In this document: in pieces, positions 36,794 through 59,200 of the stretch
Layout: each line of letters begins with the position of its first letter
Position numbering within the stretch: position 1 is the first letter of the stretch
Virus record (IMG/VR): IMGVR_UViG_3300043395_003024
Coordinates: 32,001 to 96,000 of that record
DNA from: a virus
Direction: 5' to 3' (one strand)
DNA: 64,000 bases
The notes under the pieces: model-generated
The model's input: only the letters and a program-made list of their open reading frames with translations
Database searches by the model: none
Told to the model about the DNA's origin: nothing
Position numbers and translations under genes: made by a program

Positions 36794-36794
36794 G

Positions 36795-36995: not shown

Positions 36996-36996
36996 T

Positions 36997-39754: not shown

Positions 39755-40537
39755 CTATCGCTGCCACGCTGGGCAAATCGACTTGAATCCACACCAGTTA
39801 CAGAGGATTGTTTTGTTTGGCTCAAAATACCCTTCCTTGCATCTCTTTTCGATTCCCTGTCTTACTTCGGCGATAACTGACGCGACTTTATTGACATCAT
39901 CTGCCGTAATTTCTTTCGCAAACCTCACTCCATCTTTCAGATAGAGAAGTTCCACTTCAAGTTTTTCTGCATCAATTCCAGCGCTTTTTAGCAACTGAGT
40001 GTAAATGATTAATTGGAAAAACTTGTCATCGATGTAGTTTTTTTTCGGAGTTTTGCCGGTCTTATAGTCAGAAACTTTTGCCGTATTTCCAGAAAAATGA
40101 AGTCTATCTATAAATCCATGCAGTTTAATCCCGGAAATCTCGCCCTCCACATGCTCTTCTATGGCATAGGGCTCAACTTCCATTGGCTCCTCAAGAGCCC
40201 ATAGATTTTCAACACACCACCACGCAGTCCATCTGAAAAGCTTTAACTCTTTTTCAGAACGAATGAGCGTTGTTACTTGTTCTTCCCACTTTGACGCCCA
40301 TAAATCACGGGCCAGAATTCTCGCCGTGTCCTGCGTTCTCTGTTCTGCCGGAAGCGCATACATCGTTTCGAGTATTTCATGAACAAAGTTTCCCAACATT
40401 GTTGCCTCTGTTGGCGAATCCATGAGTCCATCTATCTTGCTGAACTTGAACTTCAGCGGGCATTGCTGAAACGTGGAGATGGAAGACGGTGAAAGTCTGT
40501 CTGGGGCTACAAGGAGCGCTGGCTCATCAGTTGCCAT
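39755..40537 (-). CDS. RecB/AddB-like PD-(D/E)xK exonuclease with Fe-S cysteines
   Basis: LSPSS..CP, GFIDR, DYKTGK, QLxxY and CxxCxxxxxC motifs. Confidence 0.9.
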   Translation of the reverse strand: MATDEPALLVAPDRLSPSSISTFQQCPLKFKFSKIDGLMDSPTEATMLGNFVHEILETMYALPAEQRTQDTARILARDLWASKWEEQVTTLIRSEKELKLFRWTAWWCVENLWALEEPMEVEPYAIEEHVEGEISGIKLHGFIDRLHFSGNTAKVSDYKTGKTPKKNYIDDKFFQLIIYTQLLKSAGIDAEKLEVELLYLKDGVRFAKEITADDVNKVASVIAEVRQGIEKRCKEGYFEPNKTILCNWCGFKSICPAWQR

Positions 40538-41204
40538 CTGTTTCCTCTACTAGCGTTGCGCCGAAAGATAGACGCATTGCTTCGACAACAAGCGCGTCGA
40601 TGTCGTCTTCGGTTGCAGTAGTCAGTGTCGGCTTGGGCTTGCCGCCAGAGTGCTTTTCCCAGAAGCTATTCAGTGAATCCTTTTGCTCCTGTGACAGCGT
40701 CTTGGTGATTGAAACGAAATTGGACCACTTCTCTCCGAGGGGGGAGACTGGCTGTTCCTGTGGGGCTGAGTAGATGGCATCTTCGGCGTCCAACGCATCT
40801 GCTGAACGGGCCAGGTAGAGGCCAACTCCGAGCTGCTGGGCGGCTTTCTTGAGTGCGTCCGAAACTGCGCCCTTGAAATCATTGCCGAGGTCAACTGGCT
40901 TGTTGTCCTTTTTCTGTCGCTTAACCGTCTGGCCGCCGAATCCGTCCTTGACAACCTTGTTTCCGTTGATGGTTGCAGTCAGAGACACGTGAGCGATTAT
41001 TTCGTCAGTGTCAACGTGGTCACGGTACACGGACTGAATCTTGAAAGACCAGCTGTCAACGCCTAGAACCTTGTTGAGCCTATTGATTACTTCGCTGATT
41101 GGTAGATAGACGAGCGAGACACCGCTCTTTACGAGCGTCTTTTCCATTTCTTCGGGAAACGGCTCCGCGAGCAGTCGAGCGATTTCGTTGCTATTTGTTG
41201 TCAT
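40527..41204 (-). CDS. Rad52/Sak-family single-strand annealing protein
   Basis: VINRLNKVLG..W and KGAVSDALKKAAQQLGVGLYL motifs. Confidence 0.88.
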   Translation of the reverse strand: MTTNSNEIARLLAEPFPEEMEKTLVKSGVSLVYLPISEVINRLNKVLGVDSWSFKIQSVYRDHVDTDEIIAHVSLTATINGNKVVKDGFGGQTVKRQKKDNKPVDLGNDFKGAVSDALKKAAQQLGVGLYLARSADALDAEDAIYSAPQEQPVSPLGEKWSNFVSITKTLSQEQKDSLNSFWEKHSGGKPKPTLTTATEDDIDALVVEAMRLSFGATLVEETDGN

Positions 41205-41746: not shown

Positions 41747-43060
41747 CTAGAAGATTATAGAAGCCCTCTTGCGCTGCGGCAACCCTAGCCCAGTCAAAAA
41801 GGTAAAAGCCCCAACAGCGGAGTCAACCTGGTCATCATGGTTTGCTGCTTCAGGAAATGAAGAAAATTCATCGAGCCAGTCGGTGAGCCACGCAGAGCGG
41901 ACTAACCGAACATTTCCATTAGCGGCTGCGGCAGCGAATGGCCTAGCCCTGGTCACCTTATCTCCGGTCGGCCTCATGGCGCCAAAGTCATAGCCCGGAA
42001 CTACGTATCTGGCATATTGGTCAACAAGTGCCTTGCCGGAAGAACCAGGTTCCTGCTCCATCCTTATTGAAACTCCGTACCCATCGTCTTCCGCGGTCTC
42101 GGCAATCAACTGTTCGACCTTTTCACCCCTAACGCGGGCTTTCTTTACGTCCAAGATGTATGCGATTCCGCCGTCAAATAGCATCAAGGTACCCACCGTC
42201 CAGTCTGGGTCTGGATTCCCGGCATGTGGTTCCGTGGCGGCAAGGTCCCAAAACCTGACAACCCTGGCAGAATTAGTGATTAGGGGTATCTCGTCTGGGT
42301 CAATAATTATGAAAGATTCCCGCTGGAAAAGGCTTCCCAGGGTGGTCGACCACCAGTCGCCCTCCTCTAGCCGCCTTCTTTCCACGGGGTCCAGGGCGGA
42401 TAGGGCCTGACGGTAGGAATCAGCGTCAATTCCGGGGTTATCCTTGAGTGTGGATGGGACAAAAACCCTTCCGGCTTCCTTGCCTTCTACAATAAACCTC
42501 TGCCGGACCCAGTTGGGGGCGGGGTTTGACGCGGCCCTCATTCTGAGCGGAACCTGGGCAATCGGGCCGCTGGCTGGACGACGGAGTCGGGAGAACAGGT
42601 ATCTGTAGTCAGATTCACGTATTTCGGTGACCTCATCCATGCCTATGAACTGGAATTCAGAGCCCTTATAGCGTAAATAGTCATTAACATTATTTAGATA
42701 TCCAAAAGAAATGCGCGCTCCAGAGGGGAAGGTCGCCACGAATGTGTTGTTATTCCAGTGAACATCGTCGTAGTTGCTCATCCATGACTTAAAGCGGTCC
42801 ATTAGAGCGCCGGGCAGCGATAGGTCAGCAAATGTGCGGCGGAAAAGAATTGCCGAGTAGTTAGGTACATCTACATACTGGAGAGCCGCCATGAGAAGAG
42901 CAGAAGATTTACCCCCACCGGCCGCTCCCCCGAAAAGGCCCTCCAGGGAGTTGGTTCTCAGGAATACTTTTTGGTTTATCGATGGCTCTTCGGGGCAGTA
43001 TGGCGGCATTTTAGGGCTGAGATACTCCAGTACTTCTTCCCAATTTGCTTTTCCAGCCAT
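41747..43060 (-). CDS. terL: Terminase large subunit
   Basis: GGAAGGGKS Walker A, IGMDE Walker B, ASNP, WDLAA and HDDQVD nuclease motifs. Confidence 0.95.
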   Translation of the reverse strand: MAGKANWEEVLEYLSPKMPPYCPEEPSINQKVFLRTNSLEGLFGGAAGGGKSSALLMAALQYVDVPNYSAILFRRTFADLSLPGALMDRFKSWMSNYDDVHWNNNTFVATFPSGARISFGYLNNVNDYLRYKGSEFQFIGMDEVTEIRESDYRYLFSRLRRPASGPIAQVPLRMRAASNPAPNWVRQRFIVEGKEAGRVFVPSTLKDNPGIDADSYRQALSALDPVERRRLEEGDWWSTTLGSLFQRESFIIIDPDEIPLITNSARVVRFWDLAATEPHAGNPDPDWTVGTLMLFDGGIAYILDVKKARVRGEKVEQLIAETAEDDGYGVSIRMEQEPGSSGKALVDQYARYVVPGYDFGAMRPTGDKVTRARPFAAAAANGNVRLVRSAWLTDWLDEFSSFPEAANHDDQVDSAVGAFTFLTGLGLPQRKRASIIF

Positions 43061-43129
43061 AAAATTATAAGAACCAATCAACAAGACTCTTTGTGCATCA
43101 GAGCCAACTTATGCGCTACTGTATCGTAC

Positions 43130-43403: not shown

Positions 43404-45503
43404 ATGGGTTGGAACTCGCCTCAGAATAAAGACATAAATTCCCAGTCCCGCAAGGACATTGGGTATGGAGCACCAATCTCCGTCAACCCCTCGCTGGCTG
43501 GCAAGGCATATCGCGACTCATGGGATATTGAGCGCGCCTACCGAGAGGGAATGTCAAAAATCACCTGGGTTAATAGGTGTATCGACGCTATAGCCGGCAA
43601 CCAGGCTAGATTGCCGATAATTCTCAGAAAAGATAATTCTAACCAGGGTGAGATTGTTCGTGGCAGAGAAGCAAACCGCTCTCCGCTTCTTGAATTGCTA
43701 AACACAAAGGCCAATGTTGGAGAAAACTCGTTCATTTTCCGTTATCGACTTTCCGCACAACTTCTCTTGGGAACACGCGGAGCGTTCATTGAAAAGATTT
43801 ATGGCCGAGACGGTCGAATTATTGGGCTAAATCTTTTGCCGCCACAATCAACTGCCCCAATCCCGGACCCAAAAACATTTGTATCTGGATATGAAGTGCA
43901 GATGCCTTACGGGGAAAAAAAATTTCTAAAGCCTGAAGACGTTGTTTGGGTAAGACGCCCGCATCCGCTTGACCCATATCTGTCCCTGACTCCGCTAGAA
44001 GCCGCAGGAGTGGCTATTGAGATTGAAAATCTTGCCAAATTGTATAACAGAAACTATCTGCTCAATGACGGCCGGCCTGGCGGATTGCTTGTCGTTAGAG
44101 GCGCTATTGACGAAGACGACAAAGAAGAACTGAGAAGCAGATTCCGTGGAAATCTCGCAAAAGCGGGCCATACAACAGTTATAGCCGCAGATGACGGGGT
44201 CGACTTCGTTGACACTTCCGCTAATCCACGCGATGCTGCTTACATTCAGATGCGCCAGATAACAAAAGAAGAAATACTTTCTTCGTTTGGCGTCCCTGAA
44301 TCGGTAATCGGCAATGCTGCCGGAAGAACATTCAGTAATGCAGCAGAAGAGATTCGTGTTTTCTGGATGGAGACGATGCTCCCCCATTTGGAACCATTGG
44401 CACGCGCGCTTGACGAGCTCGACGAAAAGTATTATTTAGACTTTGATACATCGGAAGTCCCCATCCTCATGCTCTATAAGCAGGAGCGAGATAAGTATCT
44501 GCTCCAGGAGTTTCAGTCTGGCCTGATTAGTGCCAACGAATATAGAATCGGTTCTTCGCGTAAAGAGGTAGAAGCCGACCTAGCCGATTCATTGCTTCAG
44601 AACCCAAACCTCATCCCAATTGCAAACACGAAAAAGAAAATGGAAGAGGGGCAAACGCAGATTCCCGGGGCACCAGGTATGCCGGGCATGCCGGGTATGC
44701 CAGGTATGCCGCCAGGTGCGCCACCAGGAATGCCACCGGGGGCACTACATCCGGTTGGGCCAGCTGGAGAACCAGTACCGCTTGACGTCAACACAATGGG
44801 CGGTGCGCTCGCAGAGTCAGCGCAAGAAGGACAGCTTGCTCAAACCACAGTTCCGCCAGAGGCCATGGGGGGGGTGCCGCAGACAGCCATGCCGCCAATG
44901 CCGACAACGGCAGCTTCTGCTCCCGAATCGGAAATTGAAACAAAGTCAAATGACTTAGAAAAAGAAGAGCTTGACCGTACAGAGCAGTCAATTGAAAGAT
45001 GGTCAAACATTTTGGCGCGCGGCATGGAAAGACTGATAGAGCGCCAGCAGCGCGTTGTACTTGAAAAAGCAAGCGGCGCAAGGGCAAAGAAAGCGCTTAT
45101 GCACGGAACGCTTGACATCGAGTCCGTTTTGTCAATAGATACATGGAACAAGCAATTTGAAGACGACATCAAGCCCGTTATCTCCTCAATTATCAACGAT
45201 TCTTTCGAATCCCGAGTCAACGCAGCCTCGGAAAAAGGCTTAAGAATCAAGGCAATGCCGGCGAAAGACGTCAGGGCCATGGTTGATGCCCACGTTTCAA
45301 GGATTAAGAAGATTAACGAATCTCATTTCAACGAAATCAACGCGATGATGCTGAAGTCGTTCGAATATGCAGACGAAGACAAGAGGTTCTCTTTCTTCCG
45401 CGACAGCCTTGTCGAGATGTTTACAGACTTTTTTGCTCATCAGCAAGAATCAATCGCGGAACGCGAAGCTCGGTCCGCGTGGGGATTTGGGCAGACCGTT
45501 TAG
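43404..45503 (+). CDS. HK97-family portal protein with Pro/Met-rich linker and C-terminal extension
   Basis: WVNRCIDAIA, LLLGTRGAF, NDGRPGG, FGVPESVIG and NEYR motifs. Confidence 0.93.
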   Translation: MGWNSPQNKDINSQSRKDIGYGAPISVNPSLAGKAYRDSWDIERAYREGMSKITWVNRCIDAIAGNQARLPIILRKDNSNQGEIVRGREANRSPLLELLNTKANVGENSFIFRYRLSAQLLLGTRGAFIEKIYGRDGRIIGLNLLPPQSTAPIPDPKTFVSGYEVQMPYGEKKFLKPEDVVWVRRPHPLDPYLSLTPLEAAGVAIEIENLAKLYNRNYLLNDGRPGGLLVVRGAIDEDDKEELRSRFRGNLAKAGHTTVIAADDGVDFVDTSANPRDAAYIQMRQITKEEILSSFGVPESVIGNAAGRTFSNAAEEIRVFWMETMLPHLEPLARALDELDEKYYLDFDTSEVPILMLYKQERDKYLLQEFQSGLISANEYRIGSSRKEVEADLADSLLQNPNLIPIANTKKKMEEGQTQIPGAPGMPGMPGMPGMPPGAPPGMPPGALHPVGPAGEPVPLDVNTMGGALAESAQEGQLAQTTVPPEAMGGVPQTAMPPMPTTAASAPESEIETKSNDLEKEELDRTEQSIERWSNILARGMERLIERQQRVVLEKASGARAKKALMHGTLDIESVLSIDTWNKQFEDDIKPVISSIINDSFESRVNAASEKGLRIKAMPAKDVRAMVDAHVSRIKKINESHFNEINAMMLKSFEYADEDKRFSFFRDSLVEMFTDFFAHQQESIAEREARSAWGFGQTV

Positions 45504-45634: not shown

Positions 45635-48600
45635 ATGCCATCTGAACTGTTCGAATATAAGTCAAGTTCGCTTGGCAACTCCCTCTCATCCAAGGGTGGA
45701 AACATCAACCTGGACGAGGCTCAGGGCATAGTTGAGTGTTTCGTGGCCGGTATTGGGAATAAGGATTCGGTCGGTGACATCGTCGCAAGCGGCGCATTCA
45801 CAAAGAGCCTTCAGCGCCGTAAGCCACGCGTTGTTTGGGGCCACAGCTGGAATGACCCGATTGGCAAAGTTCTAGAGATTTACGAAGTTCCTAACACAGA
45901 CAACCGCCTACCGCTCAAGATGAAGATGGCTGGGATTGGCGGTCTTTTCGCTCGCGTCCAGTTCAACCTGAATTCAGAAAAGGGCCGCGAAGCCTTTGCG
46001 ATGGTTGCCTTCTTCGGCGAGGAACAGGAATGGTCAATTGGCTACAAGACGCTGCGAGCCCAGTTTGACCAGAAGTCTCAAGCAAATGTCATCTACGAAC
46101 TAGAGCTTTATGAGGTTTCGCCAGTTCTCCACGGAGCAAACCAGCTAACCGGAACAATTTCGGTTAAGTCGGACGAGCTCGCAGACAGAATGTCTGCAGT
46201 AATGGAAGATAGCGGAAGTGCTATCGATAAGGCCGAAATTGAGAAGCAATTGGCCGCGATTCTCGGTGAAAAAGTATCACTCATGGACGTAAACGATGAC
46301 GAGGTTACGTTCGCTCGCAGAATGCCCAACGGCGAAGTTGGCCGCTACAAGTGCGGCTTTAGTGGCAGCCGTGGTCGGTATATGTTCGGCGCCCCAGAAC
46401 CGATTGTTGTTATGCCAATGCGTAGGCCAATCGCGCCAGCGGCAAATATGCCGATGGCTGGACCTAGCATGCCTGCCAACGAGCCACAAAGAGTCATCCG
46501 ACCATCGCAGATGCCCTCAATGCCTGTGGCGATAAAGCCAGGCGAGAATGGCAATCGCATGGTTCCGCTCCCGCCAGTGGAGTACGAAGATGGTGGCAAA
46601 GACAGGGAAGAGCCAGAGTTCGACCCCAATAACCTAGACAGGGAAGAGGCCGACCTCAGGGATGCCCTTTTAAAAATTGTGAAGCGTCACGGTCGTTTTA
46701 ATGAGGATTCAACTGGTGTTTACGCGGCATACAGCTCGCCCGAGGAGAACGAAGTTGCCTCAATCGGAGTTAAGTGCGCAAACTGTGTTTTTTACCAAGG
46801 TGGAAATTCCTGCAAGATAATCGCAATGGATGTAGAGCCAGAAGGCAAGTGCAGATTTGCGGTTATCCCGAAGGGTGTCGTTAAGGGAAGCACGGCAGAT
46901 ACCAAGAATTATGAGCTCGATGAGGAGTTCGCGGAAGAGGACTACCTTGCCGAGCTTGAAGTTAAGTACCCAGGGGAACTAGCTGTTGCAGCTGTTCGTG
47001 GAGCAATAGGAAGACGCCGCAAGAAGCGTCGTAAGTTTAAACTTCTTGGCGAGTTTGGTTCAAAACAGGACGATTTTGATTTTGACGACAAGCCATACCT
47101 GTTGCCAGTTGTTCCGCAGTTTGCATTCCAGGTAAAACAGGCGCTTGACCCAATATTTGATTACCACAATGTTGACTCTTTTGTCGATGTAAACGGAATT
47201 GTCATCACATCTGGCGTTAGCTTTGAGTTGATTGAGGCAATTGACACAGCTGTCGAAAATCTAAAAAAAAAATCTCTAACTGAAAACGACATAGAGTGGA
47301 AGGCGGCTAGTTACCGCCTCGGTCGTGCTATCGGAAGTCGCCTAATTGACCGTCCAAACATCGGCGGTGGACGTACGCGTGGAAGATTCTTCACTTCAAT
47401 AGGCGCTGAAGACTTCGACCCATTTACAGCCCGTGATGCGAATCTAAACGGAATCGTTGGTGAAGGTTTGTTCCTTCGTGGTATAGCGCTAGCAACACCG
47501 GACCCCACCCCAGACGGCCCTGGCTCCATAAGGAACCCAAAGCCATCACCACGTCAGCTTTCAAAGCCGGAATCGGAAACAGTAGCCCGTATTGAGAATG
47601 CTGCCGGAAAGCTTTCATCGGGGAAAATAGAGCTAGACCTTCCACGATTTGATGACCCGGATATCGATTCGGCAGAAAAGTTTGGTGCAGCAGAGTCGCG
47701 GCGCGATGAACTTCAGGGCGTACTTGATGGTGCTACCGACCCAGAACAAATAAAGAAGCTAGAAAGAGCAATTTCAGAACTCGACAAGTACATGAACCGC
47801 GTCGAGAAGTTGGCCGAAAGCGAGATGGCTCAGTCTGAGAAGCCAAAGAAGAAGCCTGCAGCTGGAAAGGTAATAAAGGCCGGTCAGAAACTTTCTAGCG
47901 GATATGCAAAATACCTAGATAAGCCGAAATCAAAGCGTTCAATCGATGAGATAAACAAGTTTGATGGCCCGATTAGCGCTGCCTTGTCGTCTGGGAAATT
48001 GCCAGATAAAGCAGAGATTCCAGAAGATTCGCCGATACTGTCGGAAATGTATAAGCGGATGGCTGATGAAATAATCGCTGTTCTACAAGACCTGATTGAT
48101 AACCCCGAAAAGGCAAAACAATGGAAGATGCCGTGGCGAAATCCTGAAATTTTTGCCAGAAACCCAACGCGTAATCGTGTTTACCAGGGCATGAACCAGC
48201 TTGCACTTCTTCTGACTGCACAAAGTCGTGGATATACAACAAATAGATGGGCCGGAAAGACGCAGTGGCAGAAACTTGGTGGAAAACTAAAGCCAGGAGC
48301 TAGCGCACGCGGCGTTTCAATCCTCGTGCCGCGTGAGGGACGAATTCTAATGAACGCAGATGGCCAGCCGGTTGAGACTGGCCGCTACTACGTTGTTCAG
48401 ACTGTTTACAACGTCGATGATGTTGCTGGTCTGCCAAAGAAGTTCTACGAGGTTGAGGATAGCGCCATCAACCAGGAAGAGCGCCTACAGGACTTGGAAA
48501 ACGTAATTCAGGAAATAGGTCCTAAGTTTGTAGAGTCTAAAGGTCAGCAGGCTTTTTATCGCCCCATGACCGACAGCATCCACATGCCGGCGTTTGACCA

Positions 48601-51600
48601 GTTTGAAAATGCACTCGCATTTTATTCAACAGCAATGCACGAGACAATTCACTGGACTTCGCACCCAACGCGACTAAATAGAACTCTTGGCAAAGAGTTT
48701 GGTGATGAACAATATGCTTTCGAGGAGCTTATTGCCGAAATAGGTTCAGCATTTGCTCTTGGCTCAATGGGTCTCGAGCCAACAGTCCGCGAAGACCATC
48801 TTCTGTATCTAAATAGCTGGCTAAAGAAGCTCAAGTCAGACCCACTTGCGATACATAGGGCAATAGTCCAGGCACAGCAAGCAAATGACTATCTTCTTAA
48901 CCGTTCGGCGACAATGCGAAGACTTGCTGGCATACCTGACGATGAGCGTAAGGGCAAGGACGATATATGGTTCGAAGTTCCTATGCTCGCCGGCTATGAG
49001 GATATTGAGCCAATAAAGCCAACAACAACAATAACTGGCCCACTAGAGGACCTGCTTGACTCAGAAGCATGGGATGAATTTGTCCCAGATTCACCAAATC
49101 TGAGTATCGCGGAGCGCGAACTTCGTTCATACGACGTAGCGCCAAATGCGCCGTCAAAGAACAAGGCAGGAGTTGTTATTACTCCGTCCGGAGCGCTTGC
49201 AAGCGGTAAAAAGGCTGGGAAAATCAAGGGTACAAAGCCTGGCGTTCCAGAAATCGACAGAATTGCTGAAGATGTATCGCTAAAGCTTGCATTTGGTCTG
49301 GCTAATGAGCCCACAAATGAGCAGCGCGACATTATGGCTGTTGCTCTATCGCTTATCCACGGCAATAATCCTGCAATTTTAAGTGTTCTTGCTGGTGCTG
49401 GAACTGGAAAAACGACAACGCTTAAAAGCATCGCGTGGGCTCTTCAGAGAGAATTCGACCTATGGCCGGAAGGTGACCCAAGAAGGGCGGAACAGCTTGC
49501 TTACCTATCGGATAGATATGGAATTGATTTCAGCAAGATAAAACCAGAGAAGATTGCTGATGCAGTAACTGAGTTAGCAAAGAATAATAAAACCGGAAAT
49601 CTTTACTATACGGTTTTCAACACAAAAAACCAACTAGAAGCCGAAACAGAATTCCCACGAAATACGGGTATTGCTACTACGGACAAGCTCTGGCAGTGGT
49701 CGCTCCGTCTTGGTCAGGGTGACAAAAAGTATGGACCGGGCATGCGCAGAAAAATGGGCATGCTAAACAAGAGCCGAGAGAGCAAAAAGTCCATGCGTAG
49801 AAATCCGGCATGGAAGAGCGAAGAAGAGACGCCAGGCGTCGAAAAAATGATTGGAAAAAATTTCGTCAGAGAAAAATTTGACGGAACAACCGAAACGTTT
49901 GTTGGTGAGGACCCTGGTTTTGAGGCTCTTGGCTGGACAATGCTTCAAAAAGGTGACGACTTTGCTGAGCATCTTGGCCTAGAGAAATGGCCAGATGTTG
50001 TAAAAAGAAAGAAAATGAAGCCAGACGTGGATGCTTCCGGCAGGCCTATTCGTGATGAAAAAGGAAAAGTAAAGAAGTCAGAAGTAGAAGTAGAGGGTTT
50101 TGAACTTCCAAACGGAACGTTCCTTGAACTTTCCGAAATGGGCGACCTTCTATCTAACGCCCTTAAGCGCTGGGGTCTGTCCAAAGAAGAAAAAGTTACA
50201 GCACAACACTTCATGCCTCCAAAACAGAGACTTGAAGACATGGATACGCCGCGTGGAAAGGACAATCAACCCACAGGCGTTGACAGCATTCTCACCGAAG
50301 AGCAAATTCCTAAAAAATGGATTGAGGCGGTCCAGTCAATCGTGGACGAGATTGCAGATGGCGACTCTAACCTGCTACCAACAATGGAACTTGTGTCTAA
50401 ATTCTGGATGATGACAGACCCTGACCTGAGAACAGACCCAGGTTTAATTACGCACTCTTCAGCTCAAACAAGAGTAAAAGTATCCGTTCCATCATCGCTA
50501 CGCGAAGGCGATACATACGTTTATGACGGCGAAGAGTGGGTTGTTACAGGATTAACCAAAAAGGCTGGGAAAACATCAAGTGCTACCTTACGTAAAAAGA
50601 TGGCATCAAAGGAAAATCCCCTCGGTGCATTCTTGCTAGACGAGGTGCAAGACTCAAACGAGGTTCTCGAAACAGTTCTAGATAGGAATAGGGATAAGCT
50701 CCCTATTATTCTTGTCGGAGACGATAGACAGGCTGTCTATGCATTCCGCGATGCAAAGAATATTCTGGCGTCACTTGATTCAGAGTACTCACAGGACATT
50801 ACAGAGTCGTTTAGATATGGCGAAACTGTAGGTCATGCCGCAAACCTGGTTCTTGGAGCACAAAATGTTCATCTGCGTAGACAGGGTGTTAAGCAACAGC
50901 CGTGGAAGCACGTTAAGGGCCAGGCGCAAACTGTTATCAATAGGCAGTTTGACCCACTATTGCCAGAAAAAGATAGGCTCGGCAATAATCCGGTCGATGA
51001 AATAGATGATGCAACACGCCAGATATTGATAGCCGATATAGAGAAAAAATATTCTACTCCAGAGAAGAAGCTTGACCTGCTGTCACTAGATAGACCAGCA
51101 CAGGACAAGGCCTTAAAGGAGCTTAGGGATACGCTTTATGGACCAAAAGCTGGTCAAATAGTAGATAGATATGCAGAGGCCGATAAGGGCAATCTGCCAA
51201 CGATGATTCTCTGTAGAACAAACGGTGAAATAATCAACGAAGCTCTAAAGTTTATAAATATAGTCATAAATAGTAAGGCTGTTGAGCGTGATGAACGAGG
51301 CATGCCAAAACTACCTGAAGTAATTATTCCAGCTAGCAAGTGGGAGCAGCTTCTTACATTTACTAAGCACCTTGACTTCATAATGCGTTCACCTGCAAAG
51401 CAGCAAGAATACATAGCAAGATTTGGTAAGCCAGAGATGTCATCATGGCTCGGACCGATTTGGACACAGGGCACCTTGCAGAAAGCTCTCAATCAGTCAA
51501 AGTATCAACAGGCGCGCAGCGCATACAAACTGATAATGCAGCCGCCAAAGAGCGACCCAACTGCTCCGCCACTTGGCACTCGCGGCATGCTTGAACTTTT

Positions 51601-54466
51601 GCAGGGAACGATAGTTAGAAGCGTTCATGAAAAGGGCAAAGCTAAAGGCAAAGAAAAAATTGAGATAATCCCAGCTGTTTTGTTACCAGAGCGCAAAACG
51701 ATGGAGCTTGATAACTGGGCGGTTGGCATCGACCAGGTAAGAGAAATAGCCGGTAGGCAAAAGTCAGCATGGAAGTCTTCGCCAACCCAGAGAGAAAAAC
51801 TATTTATTATCCCGAATGTCGATGACACCTACAAGCAGGCTGTATATGCCGCACTTGACATAGAAGGTGGGGACGATAAGAGACCAGGAAAGCCAACTGG
51901 AAGAATAATAATAACTGGAGACGGAGTCGATACAGGTCGCCCAATCGATATGCCAGATGGGTCGCAGAGGCCCAATACTCCGACTGGTGGTCGCGGTTCG
52001 AACAACGGTAGATACCGTAGAGACCTCGAGAAAGCAATAATTAAACTTGGCCTGCAGGACAAAGTAAAGCCAATGGCTGAAGCCGAACGCGGTTTTAGAA
52101 AAGAAGGCGAAGCTCAGCGCAGGCTTTATGACGGTTTCGTCATTGAAGGCGCAACGATAGAGGAAAGCACTGAGATTCTAGGACAATTAGCACAAGCGCT
52201 TCGAGATTCCGCAAAGACCGCAGGTGGAGATGTTGAAATTACAACAATGCAGCTTTCGAAGGGTCGCGAATCTAGATTCGTTGCAGTTGCGGAGGACCTC
52301 AGCGACCCAATTTCAAATATCCCGGAAAAACTGGCGCAGGGTGAAGCTGGCGTCAGCTATATGGAAGAAGGCAACCTAGTTCACGTTGCATTCTCGCGTG
52401 CAAAAGAACAGCTCGACCCGGGCACTGCCGGATTTGTTTACTGGCTACATGACCAGCGCACAAAAGCGGTGCGAGAAGCCATAACGCAGGCTGTAAAAGA
52501 TGGACATATTCCGCCAGAGCTCGATAAGGGCGCATTTAGCGACGATGGCGGCATTGAGTTGCCGGAATGGTACAAAAAGCTCAACTCTATGTCTCTAGAG
52601 GAGCTAAAGGATGGATTCCCGGCTCGTCCAACAGACAAAAAAGAAGACGAAGACATAACTGTCCCATCACCTGTTGATGGTGGAGAACCCGATGATTTTG
52701 AACCAATCGTTACGGAAATTGACGAAGATGATTACGAAATGGGGGATACTGACGTCCCGAGTGACGAAGGTGAAAAACTACCAACATTCGATGATGATGA
52801 AGAAATTATGGACGATGGCGAACTTCCGGAAGTCCCAGGCATGCGCCTATCCAGTGGCGCGACTCCTGGTGCGGATAGGCGCATAGCTCGCAGAAATAGG
52901 CGCATAGCAAAGAGCAATTTGTACTCAAATAGCATGAGTGCACAGCAGCTTGCTGGAATAAGAATTAGCGGCGACCCAAATTCAAGCAAAAATAGACAAG
53001 CATTAGAGTTCGCAATGCAAGCATGGGACGGTGTACGTCGTCGTGGCATAGCTATTGACGTTGACGACGATACGCTTTCGGTAGCAGAGCGTCAGTCTAG
53101 GACGCGCGGTGCCATGCAGAGTGTCGGTGCGGCCATGAGGGGGCGCAAGGATAGGGTCCGCATTGGTAAGGTTAGTGATAATGGAAGAAATGAAAATCCA
53201 TCGGCGGAAACATGGATGCTTTCTGTTGACAAGCTTGCTGACACAATAAGGATTCCAACAGAATTTACGTCAAGAGAAAACTCCGAGGGTGGCTCGACAA
53301 TCCGCTGGACCCAGTCGCGCCCTGCAACGAGGGAAGAAATTGGTAAATTGCTTGGCCTTAGCCCTGCCGACGCAGAAAAGCTAAAGGACCCAGATGCAGG
53401 CATAAACCATGACGCAGTACGTCTTCTCATTGCGGAACTAGGCAAACAGGAAGACCTTCCAGCATGGAGATACTTTGCTCCTGTTAGCGCCGATGAGGCA
53501 AGGCGCATAACCCCTTCACCCGAAGGCGATATTGCGGAAAATATCCCTCAGGTAGATTTGGCTGCAGAAAATGCTGGCCGTGCAAACATGCGAGATAGGT
53601 TTATTATCGAAACCTTCGGCAAAGACGCATATCCGCACTGGTTTGACGTCGAGGAAAACCAGTCGATGACGCCAGATGAGTACGTCCAGCTTGGAGAGAT
53701 AAGTGAAACGTCTAAATTCCGTGCCTCTGGTCGCTTCTACCCAGATAGCGCAATCAAGGGCGACTCGGAAGCAGAAGTTGACCTTTACGGCGAATCACTT
53801 GACGCGCTTGTACCAGCAGAGGGTGCAGTAGATGCAACAGGCGATGTGCTGAGAAACGACAAGACTTCAATAGAAGATTTCGACCTTGACTCTCTGATTG
53901 ATTATCTAGGAATAGACAAAAAAGAGTGGAAGAAGGGCCTGCAGGAAAGACTTTCTGCAGCTTTTGGCACTGATTCGGTCGGAATCAACGATGAATGGAG
54001 AAGAAAAGGCATCCCAACAGCGACGGTTGCCCACATGATTAGAACGGGCGTTCTGCCAGATGCAGGGTCGGTATGGAAAGAGGCAGATGCCGGGCAAAAA
54101 TTCGACGACGAGATGAAGAGGCCAAAGTATGCGGTCTACGAGGCTTTGACTGAATTTATTGACAAGAGCTTCCCTAATTCCAGACTCAATAACAGAGAAA
54201 ACAGAAACAAGATAATTGGCGCCACGGACATGGGGTACACCCTGACCAACGCGGCCAAGAATCGCGGTTCTGTCTGGAGCCCTGGGAAAGGGAACGAGCC
54301 ACGGTTCTCTCGCGGAGAAATGCAATCAATGGTTGACAGGTTCAATGAAATATTTGGAACTAACCACACACTTGATGACATCTTCAGCGACGAGCAACTG
54401 AGAACGGCCAAGGAAAGAGTCGAGTCCGGGAATACCCTTTCGGGCAAGAAAAAGCCAAAGGCTTAA
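45635..54466 (+). CDS. Giant polyvalent head protein: HK97 prohead protease + HiPIP-like Cys domain + ArdC-N + zincin + UvrD-like SF1 helicase + unknown C-terminus
   Basis: Protease: DSVGD..GAF..WGH..PIG..WSIGY..LYEVSPV..GAN. ArdC: WKMPW..YQGMN..VYNVDDV. Zincin: HETIHW..EELIAE. Helicase: AGAGTGKTT, DEVQD, VGDDRQAVYAFR, SFRYG, CRTN, SKGRE, VAFSRAK. Confidence 0.9.
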   Translation: MPSELFEYKSSSLGNSLSSKGGNINLDEAQGIVECFVAGIGNKDSVGDIVASGAFTKSLQRRKPRVVWGHSWNDPIGKVLEIYEVPNTDNRLPLKMKMAGIGGLFARVQFNLNSEKGREAFAMVAFFGEEQEWSIGYKTLRAQFDQKSQANVIYELELYEVSPVLHGANQLTGTISVKSDELADRMSAVMEDSGSAIDKAEIEKQLAAILGEKVSLMDVNDDEVTFARRMPNGEVGRYKCGFSGSRGRYMFGAPEPIVVMPMRRPIAPAANMPMAGPSMPANEPQRVIRPSQMPSMPVAIKPGENGNRMVPLPPVEYEDGGKDREEPEFDPNNLDREEADLRDALLKIVKRHGRFNEDSTGVYAAYSSPEENEVASIGVKCANCVFYQGGNSCKIIAMDVEPEGKCRFAVIPKGVVKGSTADTKNYELDEEFAEEDYLAELEVKYPGELAVAAVRGAIGRRRKKRRKFKLLGEFGSKQDDFDFDDKPYLLPVVPQFAFQVKQALDPIFDYHNVDSFVDVNGIVITSGVSFELIEAIDTAVENLKKKSLTENDIEWKAASYRLGRAIGSRLIDRPNIGGGRTRGRFFTSIGAEDFDPFTARDANLNGIVGEGLFLRGIALATPDPTPDGPGSIRNPKPSPRQLSKPESETVARIENAAGKLSSGKIELDLPRFDDPDIDSAEKFGAAESRRDELQGVLDGATDPEQIKKLERAISELDKYMNRVEKLAESEMAQSEKPKKKPAAGKVIKAGQKLSSGYAKYLDKPKSKRSIDEINKFDGPISAALSSGKLPDKAEIPEDSPILSEMYKRMADEIIAVLQDLIDNPEKAKQWKMPWRNPEIFARNPTRNRVYQGMNQLALLLTAQSRGYTTNRWAGKTQWQKLGGKLKPGASARGVSILVPREGRILMNADGQPVETGRYYVVQTVYNVDDVAGLPKKFYEVEDSAINQEERLQDLENVIQEIGPKFVESKGQQAFYRPMTDSIHMPAFDQFENALAFYSTAMHETIHWTSHPTRLNRTLGKEFGDEQYAFEELIAEIGSAFALGSMGLEPTVREDHLLYLNSWLKKLKSDPLAIHRAIVQAQQANDYLLNRSATMRRLAGIPDDERKGKDDIWFEVPMLAGYEDIEPIKPTTTITGPLEDLLDSEAWDEFVPDSPNLSIAERELRSYDVAPNAPSKNKAGVVITPSGALASGKKAGKIKGTKPGVPEIDRIAEDVSLKLAFGLANEPTNEQRDIMAVALSLIHGNNPAILSVLAGAGTGKTTTLKSIAWALQREFDLWPEGDPRRAEQLAYLSDRYGIDFSKIKPEKIADAVTELAKNNKTGNLYYTVFNTKNQLEAETEFPRNTGIATTDKLWQWSLRLGQGDKKYGPGMRRKMGMLNKSRESKKSMRRNPAWKSEEETPGVEKMIGKNFVREKFDGTTETFVGEDPGFEALGWTMLQKGDDFAEHLGLEKWPDVVKRKKMKPDVDASGRPIRDEKGKVKKSEVEVEGFELPNGTFLELSEMGDLLSNALKRWGLSKEEKVTAQHFMPPKQRLEDMDTPRGKDNQPTGVDSILTEEQIPKKWIEAVQSIVDEIADGDSNLLPTMELVSKFWMMTDPDLRTDPGLITHSSAQTRVKVSVPSSLREGDTYVYDGEEWVVTGLTKKAGKTSSATLRKKMASKENPLGAFLLDEVQDSNEVLETVLDRNRDKLPIILVGDDRQAVYAFRDAKNILASLDSEYSQDITESFRYGETVGHAANLVLGAQNVHLRRQGVKQQPWKHVKGQAQTVINRQFDPLLPEKDRLGNNPVDEIDDATRQILIADIEKKYSTPEKKLDLLSLDRPAQDKALKELRDTLYGPKAGQIVDRYAEADKGNLPTMILCRTNGEIINEALKFINIVINSKAVERDERGMPKLPEVIIPASKWEQLLTFTKHLDFIMRSPAKQQEYIARFGKPEMSSWLGPIWTQGTLQKALNQSKYQQARSAYKLIMQPPKSDPTAPPLGTRGMLELLQGTIVRSVHEKGKAKGKEKIEIIPAVLLPERKTMELDNWAVGIDQVREIAGRQKSAWKSSPTQREKLFIIPNVDDTYKQAVYAALDIEGGDDKRPGKPTGRIIITGDGVDTGRPIDMPDGSQRPNTPTGGRGSNNGRYRRDLEKAIIKLGLQDKVKPMAEAERGFRKEGEAQRRLYDGFVIEGATIEESTEILGQLAQALRDSAKTAGGDVEITTMQLSKGRESRFVAVAEDLSDPISNIPEKLAQGEAGVSYMEEGNLVHVAFSRAKEQLDPGTAGFVYWLHDQRTKAVREAITQAVKDGHIPPELDKGAFSDDGGIELPEWYKKLNSMSLEELKDGFPARPTDKKEDEDITVPSPVDGGEPDDFEPIVTEIDEDDYEMGDTDVPSDEGEKLPTFDDDEEIMDDGELPEVPGMRLSSGATPGADRRIARRNRRIAKSNLYSNSMSAQQLAGIRISGDPNSSKNRQALEFAMQAWDGVRRRGIAIDVDDDTLSVAERQSRTRGAMQSVGAAMRGRKDRVRIGKVSDNGRNENPSAETWMLSVDKLADTIRIPTEFTSRENSEGGSTIRWTQSRPATREEIGKLLGLSPADAEKLKDPDAGINHDAVRLLIAELGKQEDLPAWRYFAPVSADEARRITPSPEGDIAENIPQVDLAAENAGRANMRDRFIIETFGKDAYPHWFDVEENQSMTPDEYVQLGEISETSKFRASGRFYPDSAIKGDSEAEVDLYGESLDALVPAEGAVDATGDVLRNDKTSIEDFDLDSLIDYLGIDKKEWKKGLQERLSAAFGTDSVGINDEWRRKGIPTATVAHMIRTGVLPDAGSVWKEADAGQKFDDEMKRPKYAVYEALTEFIDKSFPNSRLNNRENRNKIIGATDMGYTLTNAAKNRGSVWSPGKGNEPRFSRGEMQSMVDRFNEIFGTNHTLDDIFSDEQLRTAKERVESGNTLSGKKKPKA

Positions 54467-54594: not shown

Positions 54595-56196
54595 ATGAAG
54601 TACGACGAGAAAGCTACTGTAAGCATTGACGGCGACGGCAATGTCTTGAAGTGCGCAAAGGGCGCAGCCGCAGCGGATTGTGGTTTCGTCAAAGGTGCAG
54701 AGCTATGCGCTAAGTGCGGTGCAATGCCTGTAGAGATGAAAATGGTTCCAGCGTCTGATGAGCAGGTAGTGGAAGAGGAAGTTGATGCAGAGGATGCGAT
54801 GAATCCAACTGCGGCGACTAAGACAAAGAAGAAAATGGATGGGAAAAAGCCCGGCCACGCAATGCTCGACATGGCGGACGAGGACGAAGAGCCGGAGATG
54901 ACAGAGGAAGAGCTTGCAGCTGTAATGCCGTCAAAGAAGGGCGAAGCCGTCACCATGGGCGAAGACGAAGCCGAAGAGATGATGGATGAAGATGAAATAG
55001 ACGAAGAGGACATCCCGGAAGACGAAGAGGACATGGAGTCCGACGAAGAGAAAATGATGGACTCCAACAGTGGAAATAGCGCTCGCATGCAGCGTATGGG
55101 TCGTCGCAGGAAGGGCGCAATGGCCGCCATGGAGGATGAAGAGGAAACTGAGGACGAAGAGGAAGCCGCTACTGAAGCAGAGATGGGCGGAGTCGAAGAG
55201 GAAGACGAAGAGGAAGAAGACGAGGAGTACGCAGAAATGGGTACAAAGTCTTTTTCACCACAAGACTCCGAATGGGAGCAAATTCGCCGCTCAAGAATCA
55301 AGTCAATGGGTCTCAAAACGTCTGACGTTGGCGCAGCTGGATATGTTTGTGCCATTGAGCGCAAGGCCTACGGCGGTTCTTCGCCTGTTTGCGACGACTG
55401 CCCAGGCGGCTGTGTCGCAGAGAAGGGCATGCCAGGAATTCTTCATGTTGAGGGTCTTGCAGAAAAGATGTTTGATGGCGTTGTTGTAGATTCCGGCTAT
55501 TCATCGGATGCAGACATGTTCGTTGTCGATGTTCAGGTCAAAGACGGCTCAATCAATGAGGTTTTCGTCGATGGCACCTCAGCTGAAATACTTGGATTCC
55601 ATAAGCTAGATTCATCCAGTTTCGAACAAAAATCTGATTTCGGTGATTTCCAGCTAATTGATTTCACGGAGGCTGCTGAAATTGCAGTTAAGTCAATTGA
55701 CGGCACGGTAGTGGCTGTTGAGCCAGATGTCTTCGAGGGATTTGATGCGTATGCCGTAGAAATCGAAGGTTTTGACGGCAAGTCGTACGACGTCTTTGTT
55801 GCACTTGATGGCGAGCTGCTTGGTTACGACAAGTACGAAGCAGATGAGGTTGAGGAAATTGAGGCTGAAGCTGCCGAAATCGCTCTTAAGCGCGCGTTCT
55901 CGCAGGAGCGCAGATTTGACTTAGCCAAGAGCGGCGAGGCAATGCCAGACGGCTCATATCCAATCGTGTCGGAGACCGACCTCCGCAATGCCATTCAGGC
56001 TTATGGTCGTGCCAAGGATAAAGAAGCCACAAAGAAGCACATCATGAAGCGTGCTCGGGCGTTGAAGCTGGAGAGCCTGATTCCTGGGAACTGGATTGCT
56101 GGTGGAGAAGAGAAGGCCGGCGACGTTAGCGATGCCGAATTCATGGCCTCACTTGTCGAGTTCCAGCTTCTCGAAGACACACTAGACGACAACTGA
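54595..56196 (+). CDS. Acidic head-associated (scaffold-like) protein with Cys clusters and PepSY-like repeats
   Basis: Two Cys4 clusters, a long Glu/Asp tract, EAAEIAVKSIDG..YAVEI (PepSY-like) and a C-terminal AMPDGSYPI..NAIQAYGRA..HIMKRARAL domain typical of phage head proteins. Confidence 0.7.
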   Translation: MKYDEKATVSIDGDGNVLKCAKGAAAADCGFVKGAELCAKCGAMPVEMKMVPASDEQVVEEEVDAEDAMNPTAATKTKKKMDGKKPGHAMLDMADEDEEPEMTEEELAAVMPSKKGEAVTMGEDEAEEMMDEDEIDEEDIPEDEEDMESDEEKMMDSNSGNSARMQRMGRRRKGAMAAMEDEEETEDEEEAATEAEMGGVEEEDEEEEDEEYAEMGTKSFSPQDSEWEQIRRSRIKSMGLKTSDVGAAGYVCAIERKAYGGSSPVCDDCPGGCVAEKGMPGILHVEGLAEKMFDGVVVDSGYSSDADMFVVDVQVKDGSINEVFVDGTSAEILGFHKLDSSSFEQKSDFGDFQLIDFTEAAEIAVKSIDGTVVAVEPDVFEGFDAYAVEIEGFDGKSYDVFVALDGELLGYDKYEADEVEEIEAEAAEIALKRAFSQERRFDLAKSGEAMPDGSYPIVSETDLRNAIQAYGRAKDKEATKKHIMKRARALKLESLIPGNWIAGGEEKAGDVSDAEFMASLVEFQLLEDTLDDN

Positions 56197-56210: not shown

Positions 56211-59200
56211 ATGGCGAAGACCCCACAAACGCGGGAAAGAGTAATAGTTTCGGCACGACTAATTGTGCCAACCTCATGCTGCGGTGGCTTTAATGAAAAG
56301 GCAGTCCGATTCAGGACGTCTATCAATTCTTCGGTTTCTAGCGGTCGGCTACAAGCGGAGATGGCTACAAAAGCGATAACTAGTGGATTTGGAATACGTG
56401 TTAAGGCGTACGTTGACACGGACAATAAGAAACGCGAGTTCACTGGCGATTCTCGTCCGGGTGTTGAATCTAACGAATACGGCTACAGGTGGGAAAAGTC
56501 GGCTACATGGGAACCCGGCTCGAGGCTCGTAATAAGTCCATCATTCAAATCAAGAGAAGGAATGGGCACAGAGCCAAACGTTGGCTGGATTAAGCCAGAC
56601 AAGAATGCTCCGAAGAATTTTGCAGAAACGCTTGAGCGAATCCGCTCAAAGCCGACAATAAAACTGAGCAAGTACAAAGTAAATCCCAAAACCGACGAGG
56701 TAATCCCCGATTCCGAACAGGTAATTGACCCATTTGGCATCACTGCAGGCCTAAGCTACGAAGAAAAACAAAAAGCTATTCAAAAATATAAGGGAAACCT
56801 TATAGAGAAGAAAATGCTTCCTGGTCGCAGTCTTGAATCTCGTGTACCAGGCGGCTCGCTACTGTCGCGTGCCGCTGCGGTATTTGGCATTCTTCGTGAC
56901 GAGAACAACAAGTTCAGGTGCCCGCCGGGAACTCCAGCCGCAAACCAGTTTACGGATGCGACAGGTTCCAACTGTTTTGGTTTCAGCCCATCCAGGTTTG
57001 CTCGTTTTGCGGCAAGACAGGCTGCAAAACTTACAGCAGAAGGCGAATATCAGGGTCTTCGTAATAACGCGAGGTCATTCTTCAACTTCCTGTATAACGA
57101 CCAATACAGCGCAGAAGCGCGTGGCGTAGCAGACCCAGCACTTCTTGGGAGAAGCGTTTACTGGGACTCAATCAGCGGGGACAGATTCAAACCGCCATCA
57201 TGGCGCGAGATTGAAGTGCCAGGAAATCTGCGGATGTTCAAGAATGGTGCTGTTCGCGGGCAGGACGATATTGCGCGACAAAAAGCATCAGTGGCCAGAA
57301 TTGTTGAGTCTCTCGGGATAGACCCAGCAGACCCAGACGCATCACTTAAGGCCGCTCAGGCTTTAAGAAAAATGTGGGAGGACACTGGCGGCGCTGCCGG
57401 ATGGGACCTTGAGATACTTAATGTTTCAGGTGATGGCGCGGCTTTACTTGATGATTTTGAAATAAAACAGTTCATGGAAGCTCGCCTTCAGTCTGTTCCC
57501 GGATGGGGAGCGTTGTCTAAAGAAGAACGGGACAGACTGCTCCTTTCAGATATTGGCAGATACAAAGAAACACAAAAAGCAATGTTCGACACGTTGCTTG
57601 ACCTATTTTCAAAAGACCCAGCTGGCATGCGCAGCATAGGCCGTATCGAATACAACTTTTTTTCAGATGACGAAGCCGGAACATCACTATACAGAGATGC
57701 ACCAAAACTAGTTCAAGCACTGAACCCGGATGGGACCCCACGACTAGACAGAGATGGCAATCCAGTTATGCGTAAAGTGCCTGGGGAAATGCGCACTGCA
57801 ATTCACATCAATATGGCTGAAATTCTTTCCAATCAGGAATCGATGCTCCCAGACATGCGTCCAGACCAGCGCCTGGCAATATCTGCCGTTGGCGCAAGAA
57901 GTGAAGCGGAGGGGCGTCTTGCTGTCGCTGACTTCCTGATTAATGCCGACTATGCATCTAGGGGAATGGCCGGCTTGCTGGATGGCGTCTATTCATTCTC
58001 TAGCCACATCATGCTCCACGAATCAGCACACCATAAACAAGCGCAACTATTTCAAGAGAAAATAATGTCTGAAATAGCAGACAAGGGATTCATTACTGTC
58101 CCCGTCATTAGGGACGGAGTCAAAATAGGCGAACGCAACGTCGATTCAATTTATAAATTGAGCGGAGATGACCTCATGGCAATCATGACGGATACCGCCG
58201 ACTCAATAAATCTTGATTCACTTAATGATGCTATGGAGAGAATCAAGGCAATCGCCCCACTCGCCGGCTCGTATCCACGAGATACATACATAGAGGGTTC
58301 AGAGGTATGGGCGCTTGAGGCCTCAGCCGAGTTATGGGCATTGCGCGAGCGCGGAATCATCTATGGCGAAGATATTGATGCAGCACTTGAGTGGATGGAC
58401 AGCGCAAGCTTTGCAGCCGCAGCCCGCGAAAGAGCCTCTGCCGACGATGATTCAGCAATGGATTCCATGGACGACGTGTTCCGTATCCCTACGCCAACCA
58501 CGGTTCCAGACGATATGCCGGATGATGTCATTGAGGAGACGCTCGCTGATAGAGACGAGAGACTCGCTTCTGAGTTGCGCGAGGAAATAAAGCGATTTAA
58601 GACGGTATTTGGCGAGCTTCCAGAAGAAGAAATGTTCGATGAAGCTGCAATTATTGCTTCACAAAGAGATAATGCAAAACGCAGGCTAGATGCAGTAAGA
58701 GATTTTGAAATCGACCCGACCCTTCCTGACGACGAGAGAATTTCACTTGAATCCATGAAGGCAGAGGCAATAAAAGATTGCCAACGGGCCCTGGATTATC
58801 ACACTAAAAAATACGACGAAGCATCAAAGATATGGAGAAAAAAATATGGCGTAGGTGCCAGCGGAGAAAAGAAGCGTTTCGAAGACAGTGTCCGAGAGGT
58901 TAGGGAGCGAGAGGGTCTTCTAGATGTCGGGGAGATGGAAGAAATAGCAAGACTTGCGGACCTTGACGACCTGCGCGAGAGCGTAAAGGGAATGCCTGAG
59001 AAAAAGGTTATACGGAAGCTCGCCGACGATGAGGTTCGTCTTTCAACGATGGACCCAGCATCTCCAGAGGCAAGAGACCTCGCAGAGCGTATTGACGTCA
59101 TAAAAGACCAACATGCGAAAAATCTAAAAGAGGCTGGCGATACCAGAAGCATCACAGCTGTTAAGAGAGATATCGACAAGAAGGTAAAGGACACAATCAG

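Follow-up and report, generated by a model that had tools for sequence, protein, structure and literature searches.

Polyvalent proteins, described in phages and conjugative elements by Iyer, Burroughs, Anand, de Souza and Aravind in 2017 (PMC5512222), were predicted at that time to be injected counter-defence arsenals, their route of entry into the capsid and of disassembly remaining a matter of inference. In that study, assemblin-like peptidases were found to be rare in polyvalent proteins and "always at the C termini", processing was attributed to MPTases, and no repeated inter-module motif, slippage site or shared leader was described (PMC5512222). Head-carried proteins are also known from phage T4, whose internal proteins and Alt bear a capsid-targeting sequence cut by gp21, and from SPN3US and phiKZ, whose ejection proteins are cut by gp245 and gp175 (PMC7411985, PMC10052503); the motif of the SPN3US prohead protease is A-x-E, and propeptides target proteins into the proheads (PMC10052503, PMC7411985). 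Additionally, recoding is known to yield paired products in retroviral Gag/Gag-Pol, lambda G/GT and dnaX tau/gamma (review PMC5009743). The present analysis concerns a 2943-aa open reading frame (ORF), named G1, in a stretch of 64,000 nucleotides, hereafter the window, which comprises bases 32001-96000 of the 145,204-bp IMG/VR contig IMGVR_UViG_3300043395_003024 (estimated 91% complete). G1 begins with a prohead protease and continues, in the same frame, into ArdC, helicase and C-terminal cassettes.

By its domain content (at least two disparate domains) and its packaging-gene context, G1 can be assigned to the polyvalent proteins. It is proposed, from its sequence, to be a precursor polyprotein rather than a single working enzyme. 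The explanation favored here, with a probability of roughly 0.6, is that G1 is a late head-operon precursor that would be shortened part of the time by slippage, packaged, cleaved at LSSG-type sites and ejected. Its features are the following:

45635..54466, plus strand: G1, the 2943-aa protease-cargo polyprotein ORF, one frame with zero internal stops; full-length homologues at 54-80% identity
45635..47269, plus strand: predicted short isoform, residues 1-545, comprising the protease and its C-terminal region, with a Cys4 motif at 46775-46852
45728..46159, plus strand: Peptidase_S78 prohead protease domain, residues 32-175 (PF04586, 45 bits, cut-off 21)
47263..47272, plus strand: A10 run, candidate programmed slippage site, covering the last base of the Leu542 codon and Lys543-545
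47277-47279 (TAA) and 47281-47283 (TGA), plus strand: stops in both other frames, just past the A10 run
47294..47386, plus strand: leader peptide, residues 554-584, core RLGRAIGSRLIDRP, preceded by IEWK↓A
47612..47623, plus strand: LSSG site 1, residue 660, from the motif search
47891..47902, plus strand: LSSG site 2, residue 753, from the motif search
47984..47995, plus strand: LSSG site 3, residue 784, at the N-terminal edge of the ArdC cassette
47996..49195, plus strand: ArdC cassette, ~45 kDa, with ArdC-N at 48044-48319, MPTase-PolyVal at 48491-48862, HETIHW at 48638-48655 and EELIAE at 48722-48739
49196..49207, plus strand: LASG site, residue 1188, a true LSSG in many close homologues
49208..52846, plus strand: UvrD-like SF1 helicase cassette, ~136 kDa, with motifs I, II, III, V and VI and large insertions
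52847..52858, plus strand: LSSG site 4, residue 2405, from the motif search
52859..54463, plus strand: C-terminal cassette, ~59 kDa, with a predicted fold (mean pLDDT 76)

A previous sequence-only reading of this stretch had described one ORF that fuses an HK97-type protease with ArdC-N, a zincin and a UvrD-like helicase. This was confirmed by the frame, by Pfam, where S78, ArdcN, MPTase-PolyVal and UvrD-helicase/AAA_19 were all matched, and by PHROGs, which agree with the Pfam assignments; the HETIHW, Walker A (49394-49414) and motif VI (52385-52408) positions that it cited were likewise located. The S78 domain is the only one in the 145-kb record (50.9 bits in a genome-wide profile search). 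About 108 positions of the protease are at least 97% conserved across 108 homologues, and among them His70 (45830-45850) and Ser134 (46028-46045), which align with the protease of phage Gray, are invariant; in the S78 family, these two are the catalytic residues. In Foldseek searches, the best matches of the protease domain were herpesvirus proteases (1o6e, E 0.05, probability 0.84) and T4 gp21 (5jbl), all of them weak and mutually consistent. A model of residues 1-545 had a mean pLDDT of 61, with the protease domain at ~75, followed by a compact domain of alpha/beta type (residues 199-255), long disordered stretches rich in Pro and Met, and a C-terminal part that is helical plus alpha/beta, and a sequence search of the PDB with residues 1-660 returned zero matches. 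Cleavage of the capsid protein and other head proteins by this domain is predicted from its family.

The ArdC cassette contains ArdcN (PF08401, residues 804-895, 61 bits) and MPTase-PolyVal (PF18818, residues 953-1076, 138 bits), and residues 785-1188 are collinear with plasmid ArdC (6SNA/6I89, E 4e-40) over chain residues 8-294 of 305. Both the HExxH and the downstream Glu (EELIAE) are retained; the cassette is a complete ArdC and is predicted to protect against type I restriction. In the helicase cassette, a P-loop region lies at residues 1223-1273 and UvrD-helicase/AAA_19 at 1653-1709 (PF00580, 37.9 bits, cut-off 23; PF13245, 29.6 bits), and the motifs GAGTGKT (Walker A), DEVQD, GDDRQAVYAFRDA, QLSKGRE and VAFSRAKE were located. 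No match to the C-terminal UvrD profile was reported for G1, PF13361 and PF13538 being recorded for relatives, and among PDB sequences the cassette gave one match, a weak one to FBH1 (E 0.003). The C-terminal cassette had no Pfam match and no convincing fold match in Foldseek, VIA-wide and Atlas searches; its last 100 residues reached Z ~4 to small helix-turn-helix (HTH) proteins, which is under the meaningful level.

That G1 is a string of separable modules is indicated by a tetrapeptide, LSSG, that stands between them. It occurs four times in G1, five times in G2 and nine times in G3, the two other giant ORFs of this genome, that is, 18 copies against 0.07-0.09 expected in each protein and ~0.25 in total according to shuffles. 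Outside the three giant ORFs the enrichment is mild (5 vs 1.4 expected). The 717 distinct flanks have the form (R/K/S/G)-LSSG-(R/K/A/G), with acidic residues before the motif and basic ones after it, and the core consensus at module joints is (R/K)-LSSG-(K/R/A). The codons vary from copy to copy and therefore it is the peptide that is selected. In G1, the pieces between sites are the protease with the leader, two short peptides, a ~45-kDa ArdC unit, a ~136-kDa helicase and a 59-kDa C-terminal module, the sites at residues 784 and 1188 flanking exactly one full-length ArdC. The positions are aligned in close homologues, and distant homologues have up to 18 copies; in LSSG-less subgroups, 8-16 copies of GLAS(R/S/T) or GFAS(R/S) are found instead, clade-wide, and the polyproteins of one genome always share the variant of that genome. 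Additionally, in divergent homologues, 30% of homology-block ends lie 15 residues or fewer from a site, versus 10.7% at random (maximum 11.8% in 200 redraws), and therefore the sites mark cassette boundaries. These LSSG-type sites would be processing sites that are actually cut. The sequence-only reading had the right domains and coordinates, and what has to be added is that sites of this type bracket each module of a putative precursor, and the A-run described below probably gives a free protease as well. Separately, a 1604-aa ORF at the tape-measure position (24024-28838, minus strand) carries LSSG at residues 36 and 580, the former in a full K-LSSG-R context; a tail protein such as this product is not expected to meet a prohead protease.

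The second element of the proposed design is the A10 run at the joint between protease and cargo. Of 80 homologous IMG/VR loci, 79 have a run of A9-A11 at the corresponding codon (525-562), the exception being a contig that ends before the position; 63 of the runs are A10, 10 are A9 and six are A11. The flanks comprise ~38 distinct contexts, with protein identity down to 48%, and in a nucleotide alignment of 25 contexts the run is the sole invariant block. Each of the three lengths stays in frame via compensating flanks, and in all homologous loci both alternative frames stop within 0-6 codons of the run. In G1, Lys is encoded by AAG more often than by the alternative codon (131 vs 87), and the run is its sole all-A Lys-Lys-Lys; among 60 distinct homologous ORFs, practically no other all-A Lys-Lys-Lys exists. 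The A-run is thus conserved at the nucleotide level beyond coding need and contrary to the Lys codon preference. The frame is kept through the run in 76 of 79 loci, which come from a variety of samples and assemblers, and the cargo is out of frame in L141, L156, L165 and L169 (three with A9, one with A13), where its reading frame opens with the conserved leader and lacks a start codon. Gene callers list stand-alone proteases of 534-548 aa on the same contigs as cargo-only giants, and in two complete genomes (G003 and G004), the unfused proteases of 802 and 831 aa end at the position homologous to G1 residue 545. As far as can be judged from these alignments, the run is probably a programmed slippage site yielding both a 545-aa free protease and the full polyprotein. 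Literature searches returned nothing specific on slippage within prohead protease genes or on polyproteins led by a protease. At another locus (L170, 53% identity; L170:4100-4400), a protease ORF of 548 aa stops and the cargo follows at once in the -1 frame, with no A-run. The heptamer GGGAAAG was considered as the recoding signal of this joint and set aside, being out of the canonical phase, so that no claim is made; the joint may represent a different recoding solution, or an error.

The fused architecture is not peculiar to this contig. In a homologue search across 5.8 billion proteins, 166 large relatives were found to share it, with variable cargo and a near-invariant protease. Fifteen of them, each from a different contig (up to 160 kb), show 54-80% identity along their whole length and contain the same four Pfam families; in distant relatives, the N-terminal 300-680 residues are ~50-60% identical and the cargo differs, with sigma-70 region 4, HTH, pentapeptide-repeat or extra helicase domains added in some. 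The protease-cargo fusion was found in more than 100 independent protein clusters and is, therefore, neither chance nor an assembly chimera. Within IMG/VR, 459 stretches encode the N-terminal module and 316 the capsid protein, and the number of clusters together with these 459 stretches excludes the chimeric assembly that had been named as the alternative. Gene order around G1 is identical in three divergent contigs belonging to three motif clades. The fusion is absent from cultured phages as far as nucleotide and protein searches reach: megablast of the G1 ORF against 50,697 phage records gave zero matches, and tblastn of the whole protein matched cultured phages in the ArdC segment alone (~35% identity). 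Among cultured phages, the closest head genes belong to Gordonia phages (Gray among them) and to Brevibacterium phage Cantare, where the protease has 455 aa and its gene lies directly upstream of the capsid gene; Gray is 42% identical to this phage in the protease domain and 47% in the capsid protein. Unfused relatives of the G1 protease range from 455 to ~830 aa, so that the premise of a usual length of about 200 aa does not hold for this lineage. In public databases, these proteins bear automatic names alone, "HK97 family phage prohead protease" or "antirestriction protein ArdC".

As for entry into the head, the cargo half begins with the leader, whose core lies ~10-25 residues past the A-run in at least 26 homologues and which is 65% identical over 34 aa to residues 24-57 of G3 (E 1e-4). 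In G3, the first LSSG closes an N-terminal segment of 126 residues in which the leader lies. Capsid-targeting propeptides of T4 and SPN3US cargo are laid out similarly (PMC7411985, PMC10052503) and, by that analogy, the leader may be a targeting signal, and it, not the protease itself, may be the real one. A complex prediction between capsid protein residues 1-140 and G1 residues 420-640 scored 0.06 against a mark of 0.32, which speaks neither for nor against docking. The head-operon position and the polyvalent-protein class fit a packaged cargo that is present at injection, and the cargo would accordingly be carried in the head and ejected with the DNA. The earlier proposal of the protease as a packaging handle is therefore retained as regards cargo in the head and reconsidered as regards the handle, since the leader is also found on the protease-less G3.

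Under the favored explanation, G1 residues 1-545 would represent the sole S78 prohead protease and its own C-terminal region, equivalent to the whole protein of unfused relatives. RNA polymerase or the ribosome would slip at A10 part of the time, termination two or three codons on giving the free protease, and in-frame reading would append the short leader and three cassettes, namely the complete ArdC, the UvrD-like helicase and the 59-kDa module. The long form would be built into the prohead, where its cleavage at (R/K)-LSSG-(K/R/A) would fall to a single protease acting in trans (most likely the S78 domain); at infection, the released proteins would exit together with the DNA, to protect and unwind it.

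As to the cutting enzyme, the evidence is divided. The odds that S78 cuts LSSG may be put slightly above even and those of a zincin somewhat over one in four, the remainder falling to neither enzyme or to no cleavage. S78 is present exactly once in five of five related genomes tested, and MPTase-PolyVal is missing from three of the five, two of which are 100% complete, although their polyproteins still bear repeated motifs. The existence of one motif variant per genome suggests one trans-acting enzyme. In the capsid protein, the delta-domain boundary, LSSRE-IK-SIG, stands after a coiled-coil, delta-like N-terminus and is conserved in LSSG-clade phages, the consensus Q-L-(S/T)-S-(R/H)-E-I-K-S-I-G comprising LSSR or LTSR and then, five residues later, K↓SIG. 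The latter resembles K↓SLG, the HK97 maturation site. Covariation between this boundary and the motif was explored and not upheld, since divergent clades (SISGRM, GITGAM) show no one-to-one match; with no clean covariation, the capsid link is at most suggestive, and this result counts against the S78 assignment. Doubtful, though a serious contender, is the alternative in which the packaged polyprotein is cut at LSSG-type sites by a zincin metallopeptidase and not by S78, be it the MPTase of the ArdC type or a zincin formed by the G2 region with the conserved HExxH or by the G3 region with HEYGH. The cut could precede packaging, occur within the head or follow injection, in line with the proposal of Iyer et al. 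(2017) for polyvalent proteins. Several observations run counter to the S78 assignment and lend weight to this alternative. G1, G2 and G3 contain exactly one HExxH each and the G2-like proteins of three other genomes retain theirs at residues 500-603, so that a zincin remains a candidate; the G3 HEYGH region has a Peptidase_Mx match, albeit below threshold (E 0.02), and MPTase autoprocessing was predicted by Iyer et al. (PMC5512222). Moreover, four conserved places in the protease module have the form hydrophobic-(E/S)-x-K followed by S, A or Y (FEYK↓S, 45650-45664; ISVK↓S, 46157-46171; LEVK↓Y, 46955-46969; IEWK↓A, 47291-47305), a form not enriched by count (3 vs 1.4 expected); the portal contains IETK↓S at 44933-44947 and PEKK↓A precedes the G3 leader. 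It is possible that these are S78 autoprocessing sites after Lys, unlike LSSG, and, together with the capsid K↓SIG, they imply that S78 may cut after Lys and another enzyme at LSSG. On the other hand, the polyproteins richest in GLAS, with 15 and 9 sites, have no HExxH in cis, the zincin of plasmid ArdC belongs to a stand-alone protein, and the G2 HExxH region matches no peptidase family and nothing in the PDB. Three mutually unrecognizable zincins with one specificity would also be less parsimonious than one common protease.

The precursor reading, drawn from the sequence of an uncultured phage, has also to be set against explanations that dispense with recoding, packaging or the fusion itself. 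It is unlikely that the A-run is no recoding signal, serving instead as a required Lys-Lys-Lys, a translational pause or a mutational hot spot (a heritable on/off switch), each genome making the full-length protein alone. In keeping with that view, RNAalifold on 25 contexts downstream of the run returned 0 pairs and thus no conserved RNA structure, and the GLAS and GFAS clades manage without the run, therefore slippage is not essential to the design; the contigs with out-of-frame cargo could reflect variation in the population or faulty assembly, and homopolymer length errors in metagenome assemblies could explain these few cases. However, it has to contend with a nucleotide conservation that runs contrary to codon preference, stops six codons away or fewer in both alternative frames of every lineage, frame maintenance at A9, A10 and A11, unfused relatives that end exactly at the run position, and an A13 variant whose cargo lies in another frame without its own start codon. 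A downstream stimulatory structure is needed for classical -1 frameshifting and not for polymerase slippage; the plain A9-A13 run with no stimulatory structure suggests slippage of RNA polymerase, which is more likely than a stimulated ribosomal frameshift. A considerably less probable alternative is that the cargo stays unpackaged, ArdC, the helicase and the other modules being late cytoplasmic proteins for replication, recombination or superinfection exclusion and the fusion a means of co-expression only. Packaging is indeed a prediction from sequence in this case, but the location in the head operon between portal and capsid genes is conserved in every clade, the phage has separate replication genes in its early region, and a late product can act at entry only if carried in the virion. 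Plasmid ArdC, structurally matched here, acts on incoming DNA in the one characterized system. Least probable is that the single ORF is an artefact, in which a homopolymer miscall in the A-run merged a protease gene with a cargo gene: some contigs do have two ORFs split at the run, but the in-frame state prevails in 76 of 79 loci across samples and assemblers and holds at three run lengths, and the cargo half opens with the conserved leader and no start codon.

The phage is a myovirus, because sheath, tube and tail chaperone genes sit upstream of G1. The genes around G1, within the window and beyond it, are the following:

41747..43084, minus strand: large terminase (TerL), on the opposite strand to G1
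43404..45503, plus strand: portal protein, directly upstream of G1
54595..56196, plus strand: 533-aa acidic protein, synteny conserved
56211..63686, plus strand: G2, second giant ORF, 2491 aa, with five LSSG sites, all in the C-terminal half
L003:5343-6701 (genome 100343-101701): major capsid protein, 452 aa, phrog_10, 14 kb downstream of G1
L004:737-9583 (genome 111737-120583), past the window end: G3, third giant ORF, 2948 aa, with nine LSSG and one FSSG

The interval between G1 and the capsid gene contains the 533-aa acidic protein, G2 and six unannotated ORFs. The first 1311 residues of G2 are without LSSG, its single HESAH is at residue 603, the HExxH of the G2-like proteins in three other genomes being at residues 500-588, and no family match was obtained apart from a weak Mor-like stretch. 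G3, with the shared leader, an RNase_T exonuclease at residues 784-971 and one HEYGH, looks like a second, protease-less cargo polyprotein. The 533-aa protein is very acidic and Asp/Glu-rich, with Cys-x-x-Cys motifs; it comes after the protease gene in every clade, including the genomes with an unfused protease, and may serve as a scaffold or as an internal head protein that balances charge. Small Cys-rich motifs are found repeatedly among the head genes, as in the Cys4 of G1 (CANC...C...C, 46775-46852, plus strand), a 221-aa protein with DUF3721 repeats and "WMPC" (L003:4516-5181) and a Cys-rich 151-aa protein (L003:8009-8464). Another head-gene homopolymer, a G8 run, lies in the portal gene (44867-44874, plus strand) within a Pro-Gly-Met repeat linker (PGMPGMPGM...). 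Upstream of the terminase, a PAPS-reductase-like gene adjoins a ParB-like gene (35654-37869, minus strand) and a PD-(D/E)XK nuclease adjoins a Rad52-type annealing protein (39755-41204, minus strand), the synteny of both pairs being kept in three other contigs.

Taken a step further, and tentatively, with odds somewhat short of even, these elements would compose a phage strategy like that of Gag/Gag-Pol, in which slippage at the A-run sets the ratio of free protease to fusion, interchangeable effector cassettes are brought into the capsid, and one protease with a lineage-specific "cleavage code" (LSSG, GLAS or GFAS), co-evolving across the polyproteins of a genome, achieves modular delivery of counter-defence and take-over enzymes. 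If true, this would be a bacteriophage counterpart of retroviral Gag-Pol logic and would explain the cassette-wise swapping of delivered effectors among phages. The lineage, with at least 459 IMG/VR contigs and genomes of 130-170 kb, offers handles on these proposals in a motif predicting every cut, a slippage site predicting two isoforms and a leader that occurs with or without the protease; motif and leader could also serve to load chosen proteins into phage capsids.

Compared with the polyvalent proteins, among which the Pfam MPTase-PolyVal family was defined, G1 is likewise a giant chain with ArdC-N, MPTase and helicase, its gene lying beside those of portal and terminase and its predicted role being that of packaged cargo that enters the host along with the DNA. 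It differs in that its protease is N-terminal, as in all its relatives, and is the phage's own prohead protease, and it adds to that design a repeated LSSG motif, a candidate slippage site and a leader common to G1 and G3. Plasmid ArdC of R388 is a stand-alone protein transferred by conjugation, whereas the G1 ArdC, matching it collinearly over the full length with its HExxH and downstream Glu, is a polyprotein cassette bounded by LSSG and LASG. HK97 gp4 and the 455-aa protease of Gordonia phage Gray belong to the same S78 family; however, their genes are short and directly precede the capsid gene, while G1 is 2400 aa longer and 14 kb away from it. The C-terminal part of HK97 gp4 is said, from work of Duda, Oh and Hendrix in 2013, to direct encapsidation and to be able to bring foreign proteins into the capsid. 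The T4 and SPN3US systems share with the proposed scheme head-carried, ejected proteins, N-terminal propeptides and an assemblin-fold protease that cuts at a short motif, the corresponding roles in G1 being predicted ones; they use one gene and one propeptide per cargo and cut at x-x-E, whereas G1 strings several cargoes together, fused to the protease, with many LSSG-like sites. In relation to Gag-Pol, G/GT and tau/gamma, the default reading in most members of this lineage would be the long form, slippage giving the short one (the reverse in a few contigs), and the candidate site consists of nothing more than an A9-A13 run, with no predicted stimulatory structure. As in those systems, two products, here predicted, would share a common N-terminus in a ratio set by slippage and, as in Gag-Pol, the assembly-competent part would bring the enzymes into the particle.

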